A DNA stretch of 64,000 bases from a virus, in IMG/VR virus record IMGVR_UViG_3300031419_000012, one strand, 5' to 3'. A program made the position numbers and the translations under genes. Every line of letters begins with the position of its first letter. Position 1 is the stretch's first letter. Shown here in pieces: positions 6,841-31,945 of the stretch. A model generated the notes under the pieces. The model had not been told where the DNA came from. It searched no databases and was given only the letters and a program-made list of their open reading frames with translations.

Positions 6841-6870
6841 GCACCCCGTTCACATGAGCGGGGTGTTTTC
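6841..6870 (+). terminator. Terminator between the par operon and lpa
   Basis: GCACCCCG...CGGGGTGT hairpin followed by TTTT. Confidence 0.55.
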
Positions 6871-7257
6871 CATTCTCCCCCGCATACACCTGTCCATCAG
6901 TTCCCTTGCCATTATGCATACAGAAAGATGCTCCCGTTCCTTTGACTGGCGGCGGCGTTTCGTTGCGCTGGCCACGATCAGCGAATCGTAGTCAATGTCC
7001 TGACGACCACGCGCTTTGAAAATATAACCATTCACGGCGTCCAGCCTGTATTTACGCGGATAAGCGTCAGGATGTACCTGACACTGCGCGAACGGAGAGC
7101 GGACAAAGGAGCGCAGGATATTAGAGACGATACCGTGGTTTACTTTCAGATGCGGGTATTCCGTTCCCACCAGCCGGGTGACTTCTGCAACCGTCATGTA
7201 GACGCGACGGCGCACTAACAGATCGGCTACCTCAATACTGCTTACCTTTTTGTCCAT
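6850..7257 (-). CDS. lpa: Late promoter activator
   Basis: VSSIEVAD...TVAEV...EYPHLKV...YPRKYRL...MARELM resembles recalled P1 Lpa. Start taken at ATG 7257 (RBS GGAG); located near pacA as in P1. Confidence 0.75.
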   Translation of the reverse strand: MDKKVSSIEVADLLVRRRVYMTVAEVTRLVGTEYPHLKVNHGIVSNILRSFVRSPFAQCQVHPDAYPRKYRLDAVNGYIFKARGRQDIDYDSLIVASATKRRRQSKEREHLSVCIMARELMDRCMRGRMENTPLM

Positions 7258-7609
7258 GTAGCGCTCCGGTTGGATTAAAAACACGCTATTCTAAGGTTTG
7301 TCTAATCCGTGCAAGGCAGAACGTCGTCAATTTTGGATTTTTTGACAGGGCTGGCGTGTTTTCAGGAGCAATCTGACCCGTATTTAAAGATACCTTTACT
7401 GGCTTGTGGTGCAGCATCACGGAATGGCTTTGGCTCTGCCTGGCCTCGCAACAGCAGGGTTAACGCCTTAATTAGTGCCATTGGTTGATATAATAAAGAC
7501 GCCGCTACACGCTGCTTTTGGAAAGTGCGTTTTAGAATTGTGGGCGTTTATGAAGGGTGTAGTACGCCGGATAGCGCTTAATATCCGGCATACAGTGGTC
7601 TGGCGGGTA

Positions 7610-8268: not shown

Positions 8269-8584
8269 GCGCCACGGCCATAGGTGCGCCCTCTTCTCTG
8301 AACCTCAGCATGCCTTCATCAATCAGCTGCTCGCTGCGCAGGATCAAATCGTTGAGTTTGAGCATGGCCAGACAGGTAGCGTGATTAAGCGACTCCCCGC
8401 GGGCGGTCATCGTCAGTGCGCCTTTGCTTACCGTGGCGGACCAGTCTGCAGTCATCTGTGACTGCTCCGTGACGACAAAGCCCAGGTACTCGAGAACGTT
8501 CAGCAGCGCCATGTAGTCGCCGGTATAGTTACCCTTTGCACCGGCAATCATGGCAATCGTCTCGTTTATTTGTTGATCGTTCAT
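8201..8584 (-). CDS. Hypothetical phage protein, possibly phage ABA-sandwich fold
   Basis: 127 aa in operon; WSATVS...ARGESLNHATCLAMLK pattern recalls ABA-sandwich domains (weak). Confidence 0.6.
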   Translation of the reverse strand: MNDQQINETIAMIAGAKGNYTGDYMALLNVLEYLGFVVTEQSQMTADWSATVSKGALTMTARGESLNHATCLAMLKLNDLILRSEQLIDEGMLRFREEGAPMAVAHVWLSDGAKVARKAWGEYASAP

Positions 8585-8589
8585 CGCTA

Positions 8590-8841
8590 TCAGTAACCCC
8601 GCTTTGTTTTGCGCTGGTGGGCGCTCTTTTTACGCTTCCGTATTGCCTGCCGTTTCCGTTCGCGCTGCTGCTGCGCTTCTTCTACGCTGGTGGCCAGCCG
8701 GTGTATTCCTTCCTCAACGGTCAGCTGCGGGCGCTCCGGCAGCTGCAGCGACCTGGCATGCAGCACGGGAACGGTTGGCGGCCGGCGTGCCAGCCAGGTG
8801 AGACTTCCCATTAATGCGCCCATCAGTGCGATCTTTTTCAT
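8590..8841 (-). CDS. Hypothetical protein with hydrophobic N-terminus and basic tail
   Basis: 83 aa, RBS AGAGAGAG, first gene after the RNA array. Confidence 0.55.
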   Translation of the reverse strand: MKKIALMGALMGSLTWLARRPPTVPVLHARSLQLPERPQLTVEEGIHRLATSVEEAQQQRERKRQAIRKRKKSAHQRKTKRGY

Positions 8842-8858
8842 GCTCTCTCTCTGTCGTG

Positions 8859-8949
8859 CAGGCGTGCAGAATCCCCGGCGATTGCCGGTGATTAAAATTC
8901 ACCTGATTAATTCCGGCGCCGGCGGCGCACGGGGATGGTATGACGCCTG
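8859..8949 (-). ncRNA. Cloverleaf-like structure with a Lys(UUU)-like stem-loop
   Basis: Outer stems CAGGCGT/ACGCCTG and ATCCCC/GGGGAT enclose three hairpins, one being GGTGA-ATTTTAA-TCACC (5 bp stem, 7-nt loop). Confidence 0.4.
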
Positions 8950-8981
8950 TCCCGGCGGCTGGCCGGGTGGCTATGTGGATA

Positions 8982-9083
8982 TTGTGCTGACCGGATTTGA
9001 ACCGGCGACCTCACGCTTGTCCCTTTCACCGCCCTCCGGGCTGAATAAAAGAGCGAACGCTGCTGCCACTGAGCTACAACACA
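8982..9083 (-). ncRNA. tRNA-like RNA with long hairpin inserted in the anticodon loop
   Basis: Acceptor TGTGTTG/CAGCACA, D-region TAGCTCAGTGGCAGCAGCG, variable loop AGGTC, T-arm GCCGG-TTCAAAT-CCGGT. The anticodon region is ~30 nt too long and contains CTTTTA; no CCA encoded. Confidence 0.8.
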
Positions 9084-9341
9084 ACGATAAAAGCCCGTCT
9101 GCCGGCGCTCTTACCTGTTGGGCTGTGTCAGCGAGCCACCAGCTGATCGATAAGCCAGCGGTGACCGGCAAACAGTCCGGCATTCAGCAGCAGGTGAAAC
9201 ATTACAAACTGCATCGCTCTGACTGTTTTGGTATACATGCTGGTGTCCATACTGCTTAAATCCTGATTGACTGACTGAATTGCTTAAATCATGCCTGAAT
9301 TTTCATGTCAGCGCTCATGCCTGCAAATCTGCTTTGCGTTA

Positions 9342-9482
9342 GTGGTGGCCGGTGCCATACCCGGCAAGTAACCTCTCAAGCGACTGGTCAACTCGGTTAC
9401 TGGCGGCTTAAACCCCTATGCGGTGCGATTGATGAAGCGGGGGCCAGTCTTGCGATCGCAGCAGCAACTGCGAATGCACCAC
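9342..9482 (-). ncRNA. c4-like RNA (acceptor-like stem plus terminal T-like arm)
   Basis: GTGGTG/CACCAC closing stem with GCCGG-8nt-CCGGC stacked on it, internal hairpins, and a 5' leader CAGTACTCTTTCCGTTGTG of the kind recalled from c4-type elements. Confidence 0.55.
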
Positions 9483-9676
9483 AACGGAAAGAGTACTGAG
9501 CGGCTAATACGCTTTCCTGTTGGGTTGGTAATACTATTTGCGGCGCTTTTTCTTCACGTCTCGGCGACAGGCTTTAATAACCGTTTCAAAGCCATAAATC
9601 ACCACCAGCGTGTAAATGATAGTGAGAGCCGGGTGTTCTGCGGCAAACGCTAAAATCGGCATATCGTGTCCTGTCA

Positions 9677-9825
9677 GTGAGGGAGCTGTCTCTTCCAGCT
9701 GTCAGAACTAATCGCCCAGGCGTTCAACCTTAGATGGCAGCAATTCTCTGCTGGCTGGATGACATTACGTGTAAACCGGATAACCAATCAGACCAAAGGC
9801 ATAAAAGTCCTAGCTCCGCACTCAC
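9677..9825 (-). ncRNA. Structured RNA with acceptor-like stem plus T-like arm
   Basis: GTGAGTG/CCCTCAC (6 of 7 paired) with AGCTG-GAAGAGA-CAGCT adjacent; contains CTTTTA. Confidence 0.4.
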
Positions 9826-9897
9826 ATATCCCAAGTGACCCACTTCCGGCCACCAGCAGGGTGCGCTGGCTCCAATGCAACTGGCCTGTACAGATAC

Positions 9898-9981
9898 TGG
9901 CAGTAACGGCTGGATTTGAACCAGCGACCTTCCGTACTCCTGAGTAAAAGCCGGACGCTCGTGCCACTGAGCTACGTCACC
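9898..9981 (-). tRNA. Atypical tRNA-Lys(UUU)-like RNA with insertion 3' of the anticodon
   Basis: Acceptor GGTGACG/CGTTACT plus GCCA, D-arm GCTC-AGTGGCAC-GAGC, T-arm GCTGG-TTCAAAT-CCAGC. Anticodon region reads TCCGG-CTTTTA-CTCAGGAGT-ACGGA; 84 nt. Confidence 0.8.
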
Positions 9982-10014
9982 ATTAACGGGTTGCTGTGAT
10001 CGGTTTCCGTTAGC

Positions 10015-10151
10015 GCGATTGTTCAATGAGGCGGGAGTTGAACCCGCTTTGCCTTCGCAGCCCATCGCTGACCGCCTGCGTCAATTCGCCGGCAAGGCTT
10101 TCGCCCCGTGGACTCAGATCCACAACTCCTACGGTGTGTTAAAGCAATCAC
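10015..10151 (-). ncRNA. Enlarged tRNA-like RNA with canonical T-arm
   Basis: Closing stem GTGATTG/CAATCGC, T-arm GCGGG-TTCAACT-CCCGC (10031-10047), several internal hairpins. Confidence 0.55.
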
Positions 10152-10342
10152 CACAACGGCTGAGAGCACTGAAAATCTGCCCGGATAACGGCGTCTTTGC
10201 CAGTCGCCGCCAGTGCTCTCACCGTTGTGTGCTGGTCTTTCCCAGCTGCCACGAACTTTTTTAAGGTCTGCCGCTGACCTTGCCCTGCCACCAGCCAAAA
10301 TAGCCGGTAAGCAGCGCGCCGCCTGGTGTTGACGTGTAGTGC

Positions 10343-10446
10343 ATGGGGGGCTGGTGCCTCCAGCTGTCCGATACGGAACCTACGGACGGGTATACCGTAC
10401 AGGAAATATTATTCCGCCCCGCGTGCGCATAGCCGCATTCCCCCAT
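10343..10446 (-). ncRNA. c4-like RNA
   Basis: ATGGGG/CCCCAT closing stem with GCTGG-AGGCA-CCAGC adjacent; begins GGGGAATGCGGCTATGCGCACGCGG, resembling the recalled c4 antisense RNA motif. Confidence 0.6.
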
Positions 10447-10692
10447 TTGTGAGCGTGCTGTCAGAGGCAGTTACACCCGTCGCCAGGCAGCAAGAGGATG
10501 CCAGCACGCTCACAAATGGCGATCCCTTACGAGGATCAGGCGGGAACATATTTAAGCCTCACGGGGCGTTCTATGCGCGGGGTAGTCCATCGACCGCGTT
10601 CACTGCCGTGACAGGAGGGGCTACATGCCGTTCACCCTACTCATAACACGCCCGGAAAATCTGGAGACTACCGGGAGCGGCCCGTTACGAAC

Positions 10693-10756
10693 TGGTGCAG
10701 GTTGGCGGAATTGAACCGCCGACAGTGGAACACTCGACCGACTGAGCTAAACCTGC
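10693..10756 (-). ncRNA. tRNA-like RNA lacking the anticodon arm
   Basis: Perfect acceptor GCAGGTT/AACCTGC plus ACCA, D-arm GCTC-AGTCGGTC-GAGT, T-arm GGCGG-TTCAATT-CCGCC. Only 11 nt lie between D- and T-arm (about 23 expected); 64 nt. Confidence 0.85.
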
Positions 10757-10938
10757 TGAAATTGTGCCGGTGCATAACCCGGCGCGGACACTTAAGCATC
10801 TGGTCAACCTGTCCGCTTGCGTACACAACAGGGAGAAGGAACTAAACCCTGCCAGATTTGCACTGCGTCTGCCTCGCTGCTGAATCCTCTCTCCGATTCA
10901 GCCGTGAGCACACATCATGCACTCACGGGTAAACCTGA

Positions 10939-10962
10939 AAAAAAGCCCGAAAACTATCGGGC
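10939..10962 (-). terminator. Intrinsic terminator in the leader of the RNA array
   Basis: GCCCGA-TAGTTT-TCGGGC followed by a T7 run on the minus strand. Confidence 0.65.
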
Positions 10963-11108
10963 ATAAATGACTACCTACAGCGCAAAACTCACTCGCAAAT
11001 GAGCTTTGCGTTGTAAAAAATTGCGGATTAAACAATAGGTTAATGAGTAACCCGCTAAATACCAATTTGGATACTTTTCAACGATTATGGTCGTTGCCAG
11101 CGGGTAGA

Positions 11109-11169
11109 AATGTACACAATGAGGAGATCTGAATCAATGAAAATCTAAGATATTTCTTAGATTTTCATT
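11109..11169 (-). promoter_or_regulatory. Sigma70 promoter with adjacent perfect palindromic operator
   Basis: TTGATT-17bp-TACATT with extended -10 TG; AATGAAAATCTAAGA-N4-TCTTAGATTTTCATT at 11136-11169 abuts the -35. Confidence 0.7.
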
Positions 11170-11199
11170 TTTAAAAGGTTGCCGGGTAATTGCGTCAGG

Positions 11200-12489
11200 T
11201 TAGCGACGTTTCAGGTTGCCGTTTTTGATAGGTTCAATATCACCGTTGGTTTTTGCCCAGTTGATGCACCAGCTATTAACTGCCATGCGGATCTCTTCTA
11301 CCGTGGCCTCGCTCAGCCCTTTAACCTTTACCAGTTCCGGCGGTAGCTCACCACCCACCGCTGCCACCGTTTCATACCCGGCCTTAATCAGCGCGTTAAG
11401 CGCACGCGCCGGAATAACCAGCTCAGAGACCGGCGCAGCCTTGCCGTCAATTATGCGCTGATGGAGACGCGGGAAGTCCAGCGCCAGGCGGGTCATGATG
11501 CGTTCATGCAGTTCATCGTTGATGGCCGTGTCCCACATAGGGAGTAAATCAGGCAGGATTCGGAATACCGGATTACCCCATACACCCGGCACGACGTCCA
11601 TTGCCAGCATCATTGCGGTGCGGATCTGATAGTGAAAGTTTGCCGTCTCAATGGACACGTCACGCATGCCGTGAAACACGCTAAGACCGAAGTGGTAATT
11701 GTAGATATAGCAGCCCACGTCGCCGCTGCCGTCCGGCAATGGCAGAAGGAATTGCGCCACATCTTCCTGCCCGTCGTGAAACTCCACGCGCTCTTTGAGA
11801 TTGTTATGCAGGGCAGTCAGTTTAATCAGCTCATTAGCCGTCTCACCGCGCAGGCGGCGCTCTTTACCAACCTCTTTATCTGCAATGTTCAGCTTCTGCT
11901 GCAGCTCAAGTTTCAGCGCGCTCTGTTTTTTACGGTCGGCGCGTAGCTGTGAAATGGTTTTATCGCGCTCCTGCAGATCCAGCGCCAGGCGCTCAGGATT
12001 TTTGCGGCGGTACTGTGCAAACTCATTATTCAGAGTGGTCAGCGCCAGCTGTGCAGTAACCAGCGCGCCTGATGCGCGTTCGTGAGCGTTTTCAGCGTTA
12101 ATAGCGCGGCTGTCAGCCTCAGCAGCGTGCATATTGGCCTGCTGAATAGCTTCGTCGGCGGCGTTCTGCGCATCAAGGCGGATCTGCGTTATCTCCAGGC
12201 TCAGCGCTGAATGGCTGTCCAGCTGCTGCTGTACATGCTCCAGTGCGTCTGCCAGCACGTTATAGGTGTCAGCCTCATGATTAAGGCGCTGCCCGATATC
12301 AATCTGCACCTGCTCCAGCGCGGCCAGGCAGTTATCCAGCAGGCGGTTTTCAAGATCGTCAAGTTTCAGGCGCTTGCGGATAGAGGCCAGCTGGCCGTAA
12401 GCCGCTACAAACGTCTGGTGAAGGACTTCATCGTCAACGGGGCATTCAGGGAGTTGCTGCAGCTTCTGGAGAAGATTTTGAGATGACAT
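11200..12489 (-). CDS. Coiled-coil protein with C-terminal RNAP-alpha-CTD-like HhH domain (P1 PmgS-like, tentative)
   Basis: Long heptad-rich N-terminal half; C-terminal ELVIPARALNALIKAGYETVAAV...LVKVKGLSEATVEEI matches the alpha-CTD pattern. Confidence 0.7.
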   Translation of the reverse strand: MSSQNLLQKLQQLPECPVDDEVLHQTFVAAYGQLASIRKRLKLDDLENRLLDNCLAALEQVQIDIGQRLNHEADTYNVLADALEHVQQQLDSHSALSLEITQIRLDAQNAADEAIQQANMHAAEADSRAINAENAHERASGALVTAQLALTTLNNEFAQYRRKNPERLALDLQERDKTISQLRADRKKQSALKLELQQKLNIADKEVGKERRLRGETANELIKLTALHNNLKERVEFHDGQEDVAQFLLPLPDGSGDVGCYIYNYHFGLSVFHGMRDVSIETANFHYQIRTAMMLAMDVVPGVWGNPVFRILPDLLPMWDTAINDELHERIMTRLALDFPRLHQRIIDGKAAPVSELVIPARALNALIKAGYETVAAVGGELPPELVKVKGLSEATVEEIRMAVNSWCINWAKTNGDIEPIKNGNLKRR

Positions 12490-25141: not shown

Positions 25142-25400
25142 TTAAAGAAGCGTCACTACAGGAGGTTCCAATCTCCGGGTGGTGACGTTGACAGGGTTGG
25201 AACTACCGGCGCACAAGAAAACCGGCCTACCCGAAGGTAGCCCCACCAACGCCACCATAGATACGCCCGGAATAATCCGGACGTGGTAGCGCCGAAGGCA
25301 CTATGTGCCAGCTCTCATGCTTTTTCAGGGTTCCAATCCCGACCGCTGTTTTGCAGCGGCGCGCACACTATATCCGCCGCGCTGATAAATTCAATATGTC
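25142..25400 (-). promoter_or_regulatory. c4/P4-CI-type antisense attenuator leader with Ash/Icd-like leader peptide
   Basis: GATTGGAACC twice (25329-25338, 25164-25173) with a complementary GTTCCAACCC between (25194-25203). Encodes MVALVGLPSGRPVFLCAGSSNPVNVTT (25142-25258), an Ash-family-like motif. Confidence 0.65.
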
Positions 25401-28379: not shown

Positions 28380-29267
28380 TTAAATTCTCAATGTATCGAT
28401 AACCGCTCTTAGAGCGGGTGACACATTGCGGTGCGGATAATAGATATATGAACCTTCCAGGCGCTGACTGTAGCATTGCAAAACTCTGATCAGCGCCCCC
28501 TGTTCTATATCATCAGAAACTAATTCCTCCGGAACATAAGCCAGTCCCAGGCCTAGCCGGGCTGCTTTGGCTTCCATATAGCTGTCAGCAAAGGCCCATT
28601 GTCCCTGAGGCTGATGGGTTATCTTTTTACCGTCTTGATTGAGTTCCCATGCATACAGGCTGCCGTCTCCAAACTGGTAAGCGATGCAGGGATGAATAAC
28701 TAAATCGGAGGGAGTTTGCGGAAATCCGTAGCGACGAAAGTGCTCGGGCGTGCCGACAACGGCCATCTCCATATCGGGCGAAATGCGCACAGCGACCATA
28801 CCGCTACCTACTTCCGAGCCCAGACGTATACCGGCATCGAAGCGCTCAGCAATAATATCGACAAACCGGCTTTCGCTGATGAGCTCCAGCCGAATATCTG
28901 GGTAGCGTTGTTTAAACACCGCCAGCTTCGGCAGCAGCACTTTATCAATGGCGTGCTGACTGGCATTAATACGGACCGTACCCGATGGGGTATGGCGATA
29001 ATGGGCCAGCGTGGCAAGCCCCATATCTAAAGCGTCAAATCCAGATTCGACGGTTCGATAGAGCAACTCGCCGGCATGGGTGAGCGATAACTTGCGCGTG
29101 GTACGCACCAGAAGCTGCACGCCCAGTCGTTCTTCCAGCTCGCGCACTGCACGACTAATTCCTGACTGCGCCAGGCCAAGCCTCTGCGCGGCGGCAGTAA
29201 AACTCCCTTCTCGCACGACCTGCATAAACAGATAGAGATCGTTATAGTTTTCCCGTTTCGCCATCAT
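28380..29267 (-). CDS. LysR-family transcriptional regulator
   Basis: N-terminal GSFTAAAQRLGLAQSGISRAVRELEERLGVQLLVRTTR; divergent from the hydrolase. Confidence 0.95.
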   Translation of the reverse strand: MMAKRENYNDLYLFMQVVREGSFTAAAQRLGLAQSGISRAVRELEERLGVQLLVRTTRKLSLTHAGELLYRTVESGFDALDMGLATLAHYRHTPSGTVRINASQHAIDKVLLPKLAVFKQRYPDIRLELISESRFVDIIAERFDAGIRLGSEVGSGMVAVRISPDMEMAVVGTPEHFRRYGFPQTPSDLVIHPCIAYQFGDGSLYAWELNQDGKKITHQPQGQWAFADSYMEAKAARLGLGLAYVPEELVSDDIEQGALIRVLQCYSQRLEGSYIYYPHRNVSPALRAVIDTLRI

Positions 29268-29437
29268 CCTTCCCATGCTGCCGCATCACAATTCAGAACA
29301 ATATGTTATCAATCTTAGCATTTTTCACCCTCTAATCAGTACTATTTCTGCTAACTATAATGTGCGCATTGCAACAAAGCACAGCAGCGTTGTCCGTAGG
29401 AAACCTGTTTCTGGCACGTTTTATGAAGGGGATTTTG

Positions 29438-30574
29438 ATGACTGCTTTCACCCAAAAATTGACAACTGCGATACCCGCCCTGTTGTTATGCGCATCATTA
29501 AGTGGAGTCACAAATATGAGTTACGCTGATACAGCCAATCCGAACGCGCCCGTTTCGCTGGTCGAGAAATGGGATAAAACTTTTGCTGAGAGCACGAAAG
29601 TTGATCACCGTAAGGTGACCTTTCCGAACCGATACGGGATCACCTTAGTCGGGGATCTCTACATCCCGAAGGATCGTGGGGATCGCAAGCTGGCAGCTAT
29701 TGCTGTTAGCGGCCCCTTCGGGGCGGTGAAAGAGCAATCCAGCGGCCTGTATGCGCAGACGCTGGCTGAACAGGGATTTGTCACTCTGGCTTTCGACCCT
29801 TCATACACGGGCGAAAGCGGCGGCTACCCGCGCAACGTCGCATCTCCGGATATCAACACCGAGGATTTCAGCGCGGCGGTTGATTTCTTAGGCCTGCAAA
29901 AAGAGGTGGATCGCAACCGTATCGGGCTGCTCGGTATCTGCGGATGGGGCGGCATGGCCTTAAACGACGCCGCGATGGACACGCGTGTCAAGGCGGTGGC
30001 GACCAGCGTGATGTATGACATGAGCCGTGCGATGGGGCATGGCGTGGGCGATGGCAAAGACCGCTATACCACTGCCGATCGTCGTGCCGTATTGCAGTAT
30101 CTGAACAAGCAGCGCTGGAAGGATGCGGAAAATGGCGCTTTCGCGCCAGGCGGGCATGACATTTATGTTGATGAGAAGGGCAACGTCACCGCTTCCGATC
30201 GTATTCTGCCGGAAACTCTGCCCGCGAATCCTAACCCAGTATTGAAAGAGTTCTTTGATTATTACCGCATGCCGCGTGGTTTCCATGAGCGTTCGGTCAA
30301 CTCAACCGGTGCCTGGAATGCAACCATGCCGCTGTCATTTATGAATATGCCGCTGCTGAGTTACGCCAATGAAGTTACTATCCCTACACTCATCGTGACC
30401 GGCGAAAAAGCCCATTCACGCTATTTTGCTGAAGATGCCTTTAAGGCAATCGGCAGCAAAGAGAAAGAGTTAGTGATTGTCCCTGGGGCAAACCATGTTG
30501 ATCTGTACGACAACGTTGCGGGTAAGATCCCATTTGCCAAATTTGAGCAATTTTTCAAAGCAAACTTAAGGTAA
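29438..30574 (+). CDS. Alpha/beta-fold hydrolase with signal peptide (YcjY/COG1073-like)
   Basis: GICGWGG nucleophile elbow, HVDLYD catalytic His, N-terminal signal-like segment; start ATG 29438. Confidence 0.9.
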   Translation: MTAFTQKLTTAIPALLLCASLSGVTNMSYADTANPNAPVSLVEKWDKTFAESTKVDHRKVTFPNRYGITLVGDLYIPKDRGDRKLAAIAVSGPFGAVKEQSSGLYAQTLAEQGFVTLAFDPSYTGESGGYPRNVASPDINTEDFSAAVDFLGLQKEVDRNRIGLLGICGWGGMALNDAAMDTRVKAVATSVMYDMSRAMGHGVGDGKDRYTTADRRAVLQYLNKQRWKDAENGAFAPGGHDIYVDEKGNVTASDRILPETLPANPNPVLKEFFDYYRMPRGFHERSVNSTGAWNATMPLSFMNMPLLSYANEVTIPTLIVTGEKAHSRYFAEDAFKAIGSKEKELVIVPGANHVDLYDNVAGKIPFAKFEQFFKANLR

Positions 30575-30742
30575 CCCGAAAGGTTTACCAGGCCACCTGT
30601 CATAAACGGGTGGCTTTTACCTGCCTGGTGTGACGCAGAATATGTCACATCGCCCCATATTCTCACCCACCTATTATGTCGTTATTCCCTGAATAACTTC
30701 TGACCCGACTGCGCCTGAATCTGGCTGGTTCGATATTAAGGG

Positions 30743-31945
30743 ATGCTAATAATGTCTACTGTAAGTCTAAAACCATCATACGAAAAAAAGCATGCATACT
30801 GGAGCGGCGTATTTGCCATGACGCTTTGCGTGTTTGTGCTGATCGCTTCTGAGTTTATGCCAGTCAGCCTGCTTACGCTCATTGCCCGCGATTTGCACGT
30901 TACCGAAGGGTTGGCAGGGCAAGGAATTGCCGTCTCTGGCGCACTGGCAGTGCTGACCAGTCTGACTATCTCCCATATTGCCGGAGACCTGAATCGTAAA
31001 TATCTTCTGCTTGGGCTAACGGTCTTAATGGCCATATCAGGGTTAGTTATCACCATGGCGCCTGACTATCCGATTTATATGCTGGGGAGGGCTCTGATTG
31101 GCGTCGTCATCGGAGGGTTCTGGTCAATGTCGGCTGCAACCGCCATTCGGCTCGTGCCACAGCACCAGGTTCCCCGCGCACTGGCAATTTTTAACGGCGG
31201 TAACGCGCTGGCCACCGTTGTGGCTGCGCCGCTTGGTAGTTATCTGGGGACAACGGTCGGTTGGCGTGGGGCCTTTTTATGTCTCGTCCCTCTTGCGATA
31301 GCTGCGTTCTTCTGGCAATGGTTCAGCCTGCCTTCAATGGAAAGCGATAAAACACAAAAACCACAGGGGTCTGTGCTTCGTCTGTTCAGCGTTGCCATCG
31401 TACCAACGGGAATGCTTGCCTGCGGGCTCTTCTTTATGGGACAGTTTGCTTTGTTTACCTACGTGCGCCCCTTTCTGGAGAGCGTCACCAGAGTGGGACC
31501 TTCTAACCTTTCTCTGATTTTGCTTGCAATAGGCATAGCAGGTTTTGTCGGCACAATGATCGTCTCAACATTCCTGAACGCCAAATTTTACAAGACCTTA
31601 ATCATGATCCCGTTGCTTATGGCCGCGATTACTGGTGCGTTACTGCTGGTCGGACACCACATCTGGGCCGTTGCCGTATTATTAAGCCTGTGGGGGCTAC
31701 TTGCGACGGCTGCGCCAACAGGATGGTGGACATGGATAGCACGAGCGTTACCCGAAGATGCAGAGAGGGGTGGTGGCCTCATGGTTGCGGTGATCCAGCT
31801 ATCGATTGCGCTTGGTTCAACGGCTGGAGGTCTGGCATTCGACAGTCTGGGATGGAGAAGTGCATTTGGTTTAAGTGGTTTGTTACTACTGGGGGCGGTA
31901 GTGATGACATATGCAACATCCCGTCAAAATAGGAAGGTACACTAA
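30743..31945 (+). CDS. MFS transporter (NepI/DHA1-like)
   Basis: About 12 hydrophobic helices; ASEFMPVSLL and LGRALIG motifs. Confidence 0.93.
   Translation: MLIMSTVSLKPSYEKKHAYWSGVFAMTLCVFVLIASEFMPVSLLTLIARDLHVTEGLAGQGIAVSGALAVLTSLTISHIAGDLNRKYLLLGLTVLMAISGLVITMAPDYPIYMLGRALIGVVIGGFWSMSAATAIRLVPQHQVPRALAIFNGGNALATVVAAPLGSYLGTTVGWRGAFLCLVPLAIAAFFWQWFSLPSMESDKTQKPQGSVLRLFSVAIVPTGMLACGLFFMGQFALFTYVRPFLESVTRVGPSNLSLILLAIGIAGFVGTMIVSTFLNAKFYKTLIMIPLLMAAITGALLLVGHHIWAVAVLLSLWGLLATAAPTGWWTWIARALPEDAERGGGLMVAVIQLSIALGSTAGGLAFDSLGWRSAFGLSGLLLLGAVVMTYATSRQNRKVH

Follow-up and report, generated by a model that had tools for sequence, protein, structure and literature searches.

The 64,000-nt stretch of DNA analyzed here (the window) carries an 84-nt gene that has the shape of a tRNA and extra bases after its anticodon, and we asked whether its product (the 84-mer) is a tRNA-Lys or a tRNA-shaped RNA of another kind. 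The only tRNA that ARAGORN called in the entire window is a minus-strand tRNA-Lys(ttt) (9898-9981) with an encoded CCA end. The Rfam tRNA model (RF00005) matched the same residues over its full length (model positions 1-71) at 52 bits, relative to a gathering score of 29, with an E-value of 2.7e-8 for a search of the whole window, and the acceptor, D and T arms were all present. In the numbering used below, RNA position i equals 9982 minus the coordinate, and all parts lie on the minus strand. The 5' acceptor strand GGUGACG (9975-9981) pairs with CGUUACU (9902-9908) and includes G1.U72 and G4.U69 wobbles. The D arm GCUC-AGUGGCAC-GAGC (9957-9972) was recovered by both the Rfam alignment and folding, and its loop holds three of the six positions that vary among relatives. 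The variable loop AGGUC and the T arm GCUGG-UUCAAAU-CCAGC occupy 9909-9930 in the Rfam alignment, followed at the 3' end by the discriminator G73 and the CCA (9898-9901). The core tertiary positions U8, A14, G15/C48, G18G19, U54U55C56 and A58 were kept, while the normally conserved A21 was C in the window and C or U across the copies. The anticodon region consists of UCCG...CGGA around CUUUUA-CUCAGGAGU-A, with UUU at nominal positions 34-36 (9946-9948). Relative to the Rfam model, the cmscan alignment placed nine extra bases, CUCAGGAGU, after A37 (9936-9944), and these were the same in 11 of 11 copies. Within the arm only position 9946 varies, being U in the window and A in all relatives. A sequence-only reading of this DNA had described a CCA-ended tRNA-shaped RNA with extra bases after the anticodon, and both ARAGORN and Rfam (52 bits, 9-nt insertion) bore that description out. 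Its view that all arms outside the anticodon loop are canonical held for the acceptor, D and T arms and the AGGUC loop, with the qualification of the two wobbles and the A21 to C change.

The assignment to lysine fared less well. We found 10 further copies of the 84-mer in plasmids, a Pantoea MAG, IMG/VR contigs and metagenomes, representing about three sequence variants, and all ten carried UUA (CUUUAAC) with an identical insert, so that UUU was private to the window and had not been kept in orthologs. ARAGORN labeled the UUA copies 'tRNA-Stop, tta'. When the parts outside the anticodon (the top half) were scored against known tRNAs, the tRNA-Asn of fHe-Yen9-03 reached 42 and that of phage D6 reached 30, while the best non-Asn tRNA scored 27 and phage tRNA-Lys only 20. 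A 24-nt string, GGTCGCTGGTTCAAATCCAGCCGT, which takes in the variable loop and T arm and the first bases of the 3' acceptor strand, was identical in jumbo-phage tRNA-Asn, and about 22 of 26 positions in the 5' half matched phage tRNA-Asn as counted from the alignment. A blastn search of the 84-mer against phages returned matches to tRNA-Asn only. In E. coli the LysRS identity discriminator is A73, and G73 suits Asn. The 84-mer thus has the discriminator and body of a tRNA-Asn(GUU) in place of A73 and a Lys-type body, and differs from that tRNA in its anticodon, which is UUU or UUA where G34-U35-U36 would be expected. Since the rest of the molecule is Asn-like, the 'Lys' call comes down to three bases, one of them private to the window. 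On sequence comparison, the body of the 84-mer is of the tRNA-Asn type. The label tRNA-Lys(UUU)-like is therefore right about the UUU in the window, and is contradicted by the UUA of the relatives, by G73 and by the tRNA-Asn(GUU)-like top half. The gene-finder labels, tRNA-Lys in the window and a 'tRNA-Stop' suppressor in the sister plasmids, are probably both wrong. Charging by GlnRS was also considered, prompted by G73, the weak 1-72 pair, UUA and the glnS gene of D6-like phages. The gene was present in D6 and absent from 4 of 4 Pantoea-type records searched, and the idea was dropped.

We then examined the anticodon arm by folding. In the ViennaRNA MFE structure and pair probabilities, residues 9931-9955 form a lengthened arm in which the UCCG/CGGA stem is continued by an extension and capped by ACUC. 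The extension consists of G31.U46, C32-G45, U33-A44, U34.G43 and U35.G42, with U36-A41 added in the window form (P 0.59), which gives a predicted stem of 9-10 pairs. The extended helix was the MFE structure at -27.4 kcal/mol, and the pairs from C32-G45 to U35.G42 had P ~0.95. The UUA form in the close relative L001 was also closed, with a six-base loop AACUCA. A separate hairpin after the anticodon, UACU-CAGG-AGUA, had been suggested from the sequence; this fold came out at -23.7 kcal/mol and P 0.03, and a coaxial extension of the anticodon stem is favored in its place. Because C32 to U35/36 pair with A41/G42 to G45, the predicted molecule exposes no anticodon. A 7-nt loop with U33-UUU-A37, as in a decoding tRNA-Lys(UUU), is absent from the predicted fold, where U33 to U36 are paired. 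By this modeling, the anticodon is most likely buried in the lengthened stem, and the 84-mer would hence be non-decoding. The proposal of a non-decoding tRNA-Lys mimic is thus supported by the fold prediction in its first half and loses its second to the private UUU, G73 and the Asn-type body. The long-arm structure is a thermodynamic prediction, since the extended helix is invariant and two-sided covariation was not seen. Pair counting over 4 distinct copies gave 100% pairing and 0 two-sided changes, which is uninformative on the helix in a family too shallow for covariation, and the invariant pairs speak neither for nor against it. With gapped sister sequences in the alignment, RNAalifold returned a distorted consensus fold, which we disregarded. 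An intron-bearing tRNA was rejected, the insert being 9 nt and the predicted arm having one single-base bulge and no bulge-helix-bulge. Contigs omitting the nine bases were not found among four runs, whose contigs are probably DNA.

The distribution of the 84-mer was analyzed next. The family splits into two lineages: the window stands alone in one, and the ten other copies cluster closely in the other, so that the UUU/UUA contrast is a contrast of one lineage with another. Among six close relatives, 6 of the 84 positions (7%) were variable, relative to ~14-15% in most spacers. All six substitutions fell in loops or exchanged one standard pair for another; in the acceptor, for example, C6-G became U.G and G4.U became G-C with pairing retained. 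The adjacent spacers, however, diverge by 2-7% and are as conserved as the 84-mer or more so, as is a neighboring minihelix, and for this reason the low divergence may be a regional effect. Scans for exact patterns in contigs from genomes, viruses and metagenomes yielded near-identical copies and no distant homologs, and a T-arm pattern scan yielded ordinary phage tRNAs (Asn, Ile and others) with no intermediate forms. Blastn against plasmids and phages added no distant homologs either, and no close host tRNA was found in E. coli genomes. In contigs from two runs of one sample (X16, X17), position 9684 was joined to 9865 with loss of 180 nt (9685-9864), and the 84-mer was kept; the region thus has a further structural variant.

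Blastn break points and annotation delimited a cassette at 9871-9984. Alignment with the more distant sister plasmids (~78% identity) ran to 9870 and resumed at 9985; the slot held tciB and tciA (638 nt) in two of them (L002, L006) and was empty in two others (L003, L005). The 84-mer was thus missing from 4 of the 6 sister plasmids compared. Since these carry tciA/tciB, or nothing, at exactly this place, the sequence comparison indicates that the 84-mer is a cassette in the tciAB slot that can be exchanged or dispensed with. It had been anticipated that relatives with an ordinary tRNA-Lys would point to recent decay; the relatives instead either had the identical insert or lacked the gene altogether. 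One close relative, L004 (CP060164.1), is labeled an Acinetobacter venetianus plasmid. It gave the same query coverage, identity and score as the Pantoea plasmid pPSP-26e and was identical to it across the aligned segments, which suggests that the replicon is mislabeled or a contaminant, or else that its host range is wider than expected.

The window itself is a P1/D6-like phage-plasmid whose relatives are Pantoea plasmids of 87-95 kb. It encodes Lpa, ParM, a DarB-like methylase-helicase (2313 aa), DarA and DdrB, and Rfam identified a C4 antisense RNA (RF01695) at 25175-25262. A cargo island at 28380-31945 carries a LysR regulator, an alpha/beta hydrolase (PETase/DLH-like) and an MFS transporter. 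The 84-mer lies in a region of ~2.3 kb between a pmgS-like gene (11200-12489) and lpa (6850-7284) that contains short peptide ORFs and no other annotated protein genes. Two further tRNA-like RNAs were found here in the same orientation. One (10693-10756, minus strand; Rfam 43.6 bits) has 61 nt plus CCA and no anticodon arm, and shows a compensatory change from U6-A55 to C6-G55 in relatives (10751, 10702). The other (8982-9083, minus strand; Rfam 38.7 bits) is 102 nt long, has a loop that starts with CUUUUAU and continues with ~28 extra nt, and lacks CCA. Homologs of the 102-mer with differing arm sequences occur in all Pantoea sister plasmids, and a Serratia plasmid carries a 125-nt homolog with a 69-nt insert (L037:4380-4504, minus strand); because of these homologs its family is wider than that of the 84-mer. 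The three co-oriented members keep the top half and have an anticodon arm that is longer, substituted or missing. At the site of the 61-mer, L002 and L006 have a different, 73-nt odd tRNA-like RNA with the acceptor GCAUGGG, and a Leclercia plasmid has an 83-nt odd tRNA-like relative (L035:2406-2488). The minihelix (10024-10067, minus strand) consists of an acceptor-like 7-bp stem, CGAUGGG/CUCAUUG, and a T arm without D arm, anticodon arm or CCA; it was present in all Pantoea relatives, including those at 78% identity, and its T-loop alone varies.

Just downstream of the 84-mer lies a gene for a 42-aa membrane-type peptide (9534-9662, minus strand), whose homolog in phage D6 is the small ORF that follows tciB (BLASTP E 3e-9). 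The syntenic region of D6 contains an ordinary tRNA-Asn(GUU), tRNA-Thr(UGU), a class-II Ser-like tRNA, tciA/tciB and a tRNA-CAU. Just after the tRNA-Thr, D6 also has an unannotated tRNA-like unit (L007:3862-3935, plus strand) in which a 10-bp stem, GGUAAGGGUA/UACCCUUACC, surrounds a T-arm-like hairpin, with a weak YrlA match nearby. In the closest relatives, L001 (3158-4214) and L004, an additional pair of SPFH/'serine protease' (NfeD-like) genes separates the 102-mer from the 84-mer, and this pair marks the tRNA region as a cargo hot spot. A box at 10419-10443 (minus strand) also occurs in the STnc100-like RNA of D6 (L007:4519-4543), and D6 has the same long inverted repeat that we found at 10150-10236 (minus strand); there are probably more structured RNAs between the tRNA-like units. 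The array stands behind a terminator-like site at 10945-10962, and a promoter scan of 8500-11400 found no sigma-70-like promoter.

What remains to be weighed is which role, if any, such an RNA would have. If the cloverleaf drawn by ARAGORN were the true fold, the 84-mer would be a decoder, reading Lys codons in the window and UAA in the relatives, and might serve as a nuclease-resistant replacement tRNA like that of T5. ARAGORN accepts a cloverleaf with U33 and A37, CUUUUACUCA resembles CUGUUAAUCA of the D6 tRNA-Asn, and the change from UUU to UUA is the classical one by which ochre suppressors were derived from lysT. The T5 tRNA provides a precedent (PMC11464382). This cloverleaf, however, has a weak stem, UCCGG/UCAGG, in which a C.A mismatch is flanked by no more than two Watson-Crick pairs, a loop CUUUUAC and a 13-nt variable loop without a stem. 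At -16.6 kcal/mol it was 10.8 kcal/mol less stable than the MFE structure, with P 0.000. Moreover, G73 with an Asn-type body suits neither the LysRS nor the AsnRS identity set, and since the window genes are open under the standard code, recoding of UAA is unneeded. We consider a decoder very improbable. The UUA form as an ochre suppressor was likewise rejected, its loop being closed in L001 too and the long ORFs being open under table 11. A far more serious rival is a relic, that is, a tRNA-Asn-type gene disabled recently by a small insertion and the change of G34, serving no purpose and being lost from the plasmid family. The two shallow lineages, the sister plasmids with tciAB or nothing in its place, the lack of covariation, the replacement of a universally conserved A21 by C or U, the equal conservation of nearby spacers and a position 36 that differs between lineages as if unconstrained are all in keeping with decay. 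The pattern of damage is less so: six of six substitutions spare the stems, the core tertiary positions and the CCA end are intact, the insert is invariant in 11 copies, and the damage is limited to the anticodon arm, as in two other array members, at least one of which has a compensatory change. We regard the relic as somewhat unlikely.

The tRNA-shaped units could also act in cis, with no role in trans, as punctuation marks at which RNase P/RNase E would divide the array transcript into separate RNAs and short mRNAs (for the tciC-like peptide and others) with protected ends. The co-orientation of the units, their interleaving with short peptide genes and hairpins behind the terminator-like site, and the minihelix, which has the shape of a minimal RNase P substrate and occurs in all relatives, would fit such a role, as would the release of P1 C4 RNA by RNase P. 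Punctuation would not require an intact D arm and elbow or a particular shape of the anticodon arm, though, and in sister plasmids the same peptide gene downstream is expressed in spite of the missing 84-mer; this account is decidedly unlikely in our view. A C4-type antisense RNA was rejected when the reverse complement of the remodeled arm, with up to 3 mismatches, matched only the element itself. No antisense target was thus found in the window, and ~26 kb of the plasmid lies outside it. The reading that we tentatively prefer, at somewhat less than an even chance, is that the 84-mer is a tRNA-Asn-derived, non-decoding tRNA-shaped RNA with a selected role, as a decoy or otherwise. It would belong to an array of tRNA look-alikes, transcribed together, that lies between the pmgS-like gene and lpa, and like a tRNA it would be excised by RNase P, with trimming down to the CCA end. 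The extra bases would zip C32 to U35/36 into an anticodon helix of 9-10 bp so that no anticodon is presented. With G34 lost, AsnRS would be expected to leave the RNA uncharged, and it would read no codons. The sister plasmids that do without the 84-mer count against a selected role, and a random insert that matches CUUU by chance would not be rare (~0.1-0.2, a rough estimate).

A decoy for tRNA-cutting defense nucleases is the leading candidate mechanism, itself doubtful. The DUF4435 Toprim domain, which we take to be the domain of AriB, was present in 5 of 75 genomes of the nearest genus searched, and RloC has been reported in P. agglomerans L15 (PMC10999674). AriB of the PARIS system cuts tRNA-Lys(UUU), Thr(UGU) and Asn(GUU) after C40 within the string U36AAUC|A41 (PMC12409363). 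The insert of the 84-mer falls within this recognition and cleavage string, which reads UAAUCA in the D6 tRNA-Asn and is altered to UACUCA (AACUCA in relatives) followed by the insert. Because the insert lies inside the AriB string, a link of the 84-mer to anticodon-arm nucleases is plausible by analogy. P2 OLD cuts at CNG in positions 28-30/40-42 (PMC12445682), and the 84-mer has C28C29G30 and C40G41G42; this motif is common in many tRNAs and for that reason is no evidence alone. The defense-related matches (the AriB string, CNG, DUF4435 and RloC) are correlations only. In the decoy mechanism, the 84-mer would be a stable L-shaped mimic for proteins that grip the upper half of a tRNA, most likely the anticodon-arm nucleases of ANN-reading tRNAs, of the Toprim AriB/OLD type or PrrC/RloC, and the remodeled arm would remove their cleavage site. 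In an extended form, which we judge unlikely, the 84-mer and its array mates would all be RNase-P-matured, CCA-ended decoys that titrate AriB/OLD and PrrC/RloC without being inactivated, each unit descending from an ANN-reading phage tRNA (Asn, Thr, possibly the CAU type) by lengthening, replacement or deletion of the arm. It counts against decoys that the published phage counters to AriB and OLD are replacement tRNAs: T5 escapes PARIS through decoding tRNA variants (PMC11464382, PMC12409363), and a phage tRNA-Thr escapes OLD by replacement, competitive inhibition having been tested and not seen (PMC12445682). The T5/PARIS precedent that had been invoked for this locus is real, then, and acts through a decoding replacement tRNA, which the 84-mer is unlikely to be. 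Phage tRNAs have recently been found to overcome tRNA-cutting immunity by standing in for the host tRNA that is cleaved. Should a phage-plasmid instead keep non-decoding tRNA shells, this would be a second, decoy-type use of the tRNA shape, embodied in a small, testable RNA, and a true array of decoys would be a strategy distinct from that of T5. If the 84-mer is a mere relic, it documents the decay of a phage tRNA cluster and the swapping of tRNA units and tciAB as cassettes.

Among known systems, the phage tRNA-Asn(GUU) genes of D6 (NC_050154) and of the jumbo phages fHe-Yen9-03 and GAP32 are closest, sharing the G73-CCA end and the 24-nt T-arm string, and the D6 tRNAs also lie within the pmgS-lpa region. 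The 84-mer differs from them by the loss of G34, the nine bases added after A37 and a predicted pairing of the anticodon, and from the D6 gene in that it sits in the tciAB slot and not beside the Thr-derived unit. Two other sets of phage tRNA-cluster products likewise combine a tRNA frame with additional sequence at or close to the anticodon loop: the species 1 and 2 RNAs of T4, and those tRNAs of Lak megaphages that contain 'enigmatic introns' (PMC6784885). Neither has any sequence relation to the 84-mer, whose 9-nt insert is too short for a self-splicing intron and whose host is an enterobacterium without a tRNA-splicing endonuclease. Like the tRNA-Lys(UUU) variant of T5 that counters PARIS (PMC11464382, PMC12409363), the 84-mer is phage-borne, has UUU (in the window only) and is altered in the 36-41 region. 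The T5 molecule is a normal decoder with a 7-nt loop that replaces the cleaved host tRNA, whereas the 84-mer has an anticodon predicted to be inaccessible, an Asn-type body, G73, and relatives with UUA. The C4 RNA of P1/P7 (RF01695) is also an RNA of a P1-family phage-plasmid with a tRNA-like acceptor/T end and CCA. That of P1 is described as an RNase P substrate (Hartmann 1995, as cited in PMC4919922), and the 84-mer would be expected to be released in the same way; unlike C4 RNA, it has a full D arm and tRNA core and no complementary target in the window. Related oddities on other D6-like plasmids are the Serratia homolog of the 102-mer with its 69-nt insert and the 83-nt Leclercia RNA.
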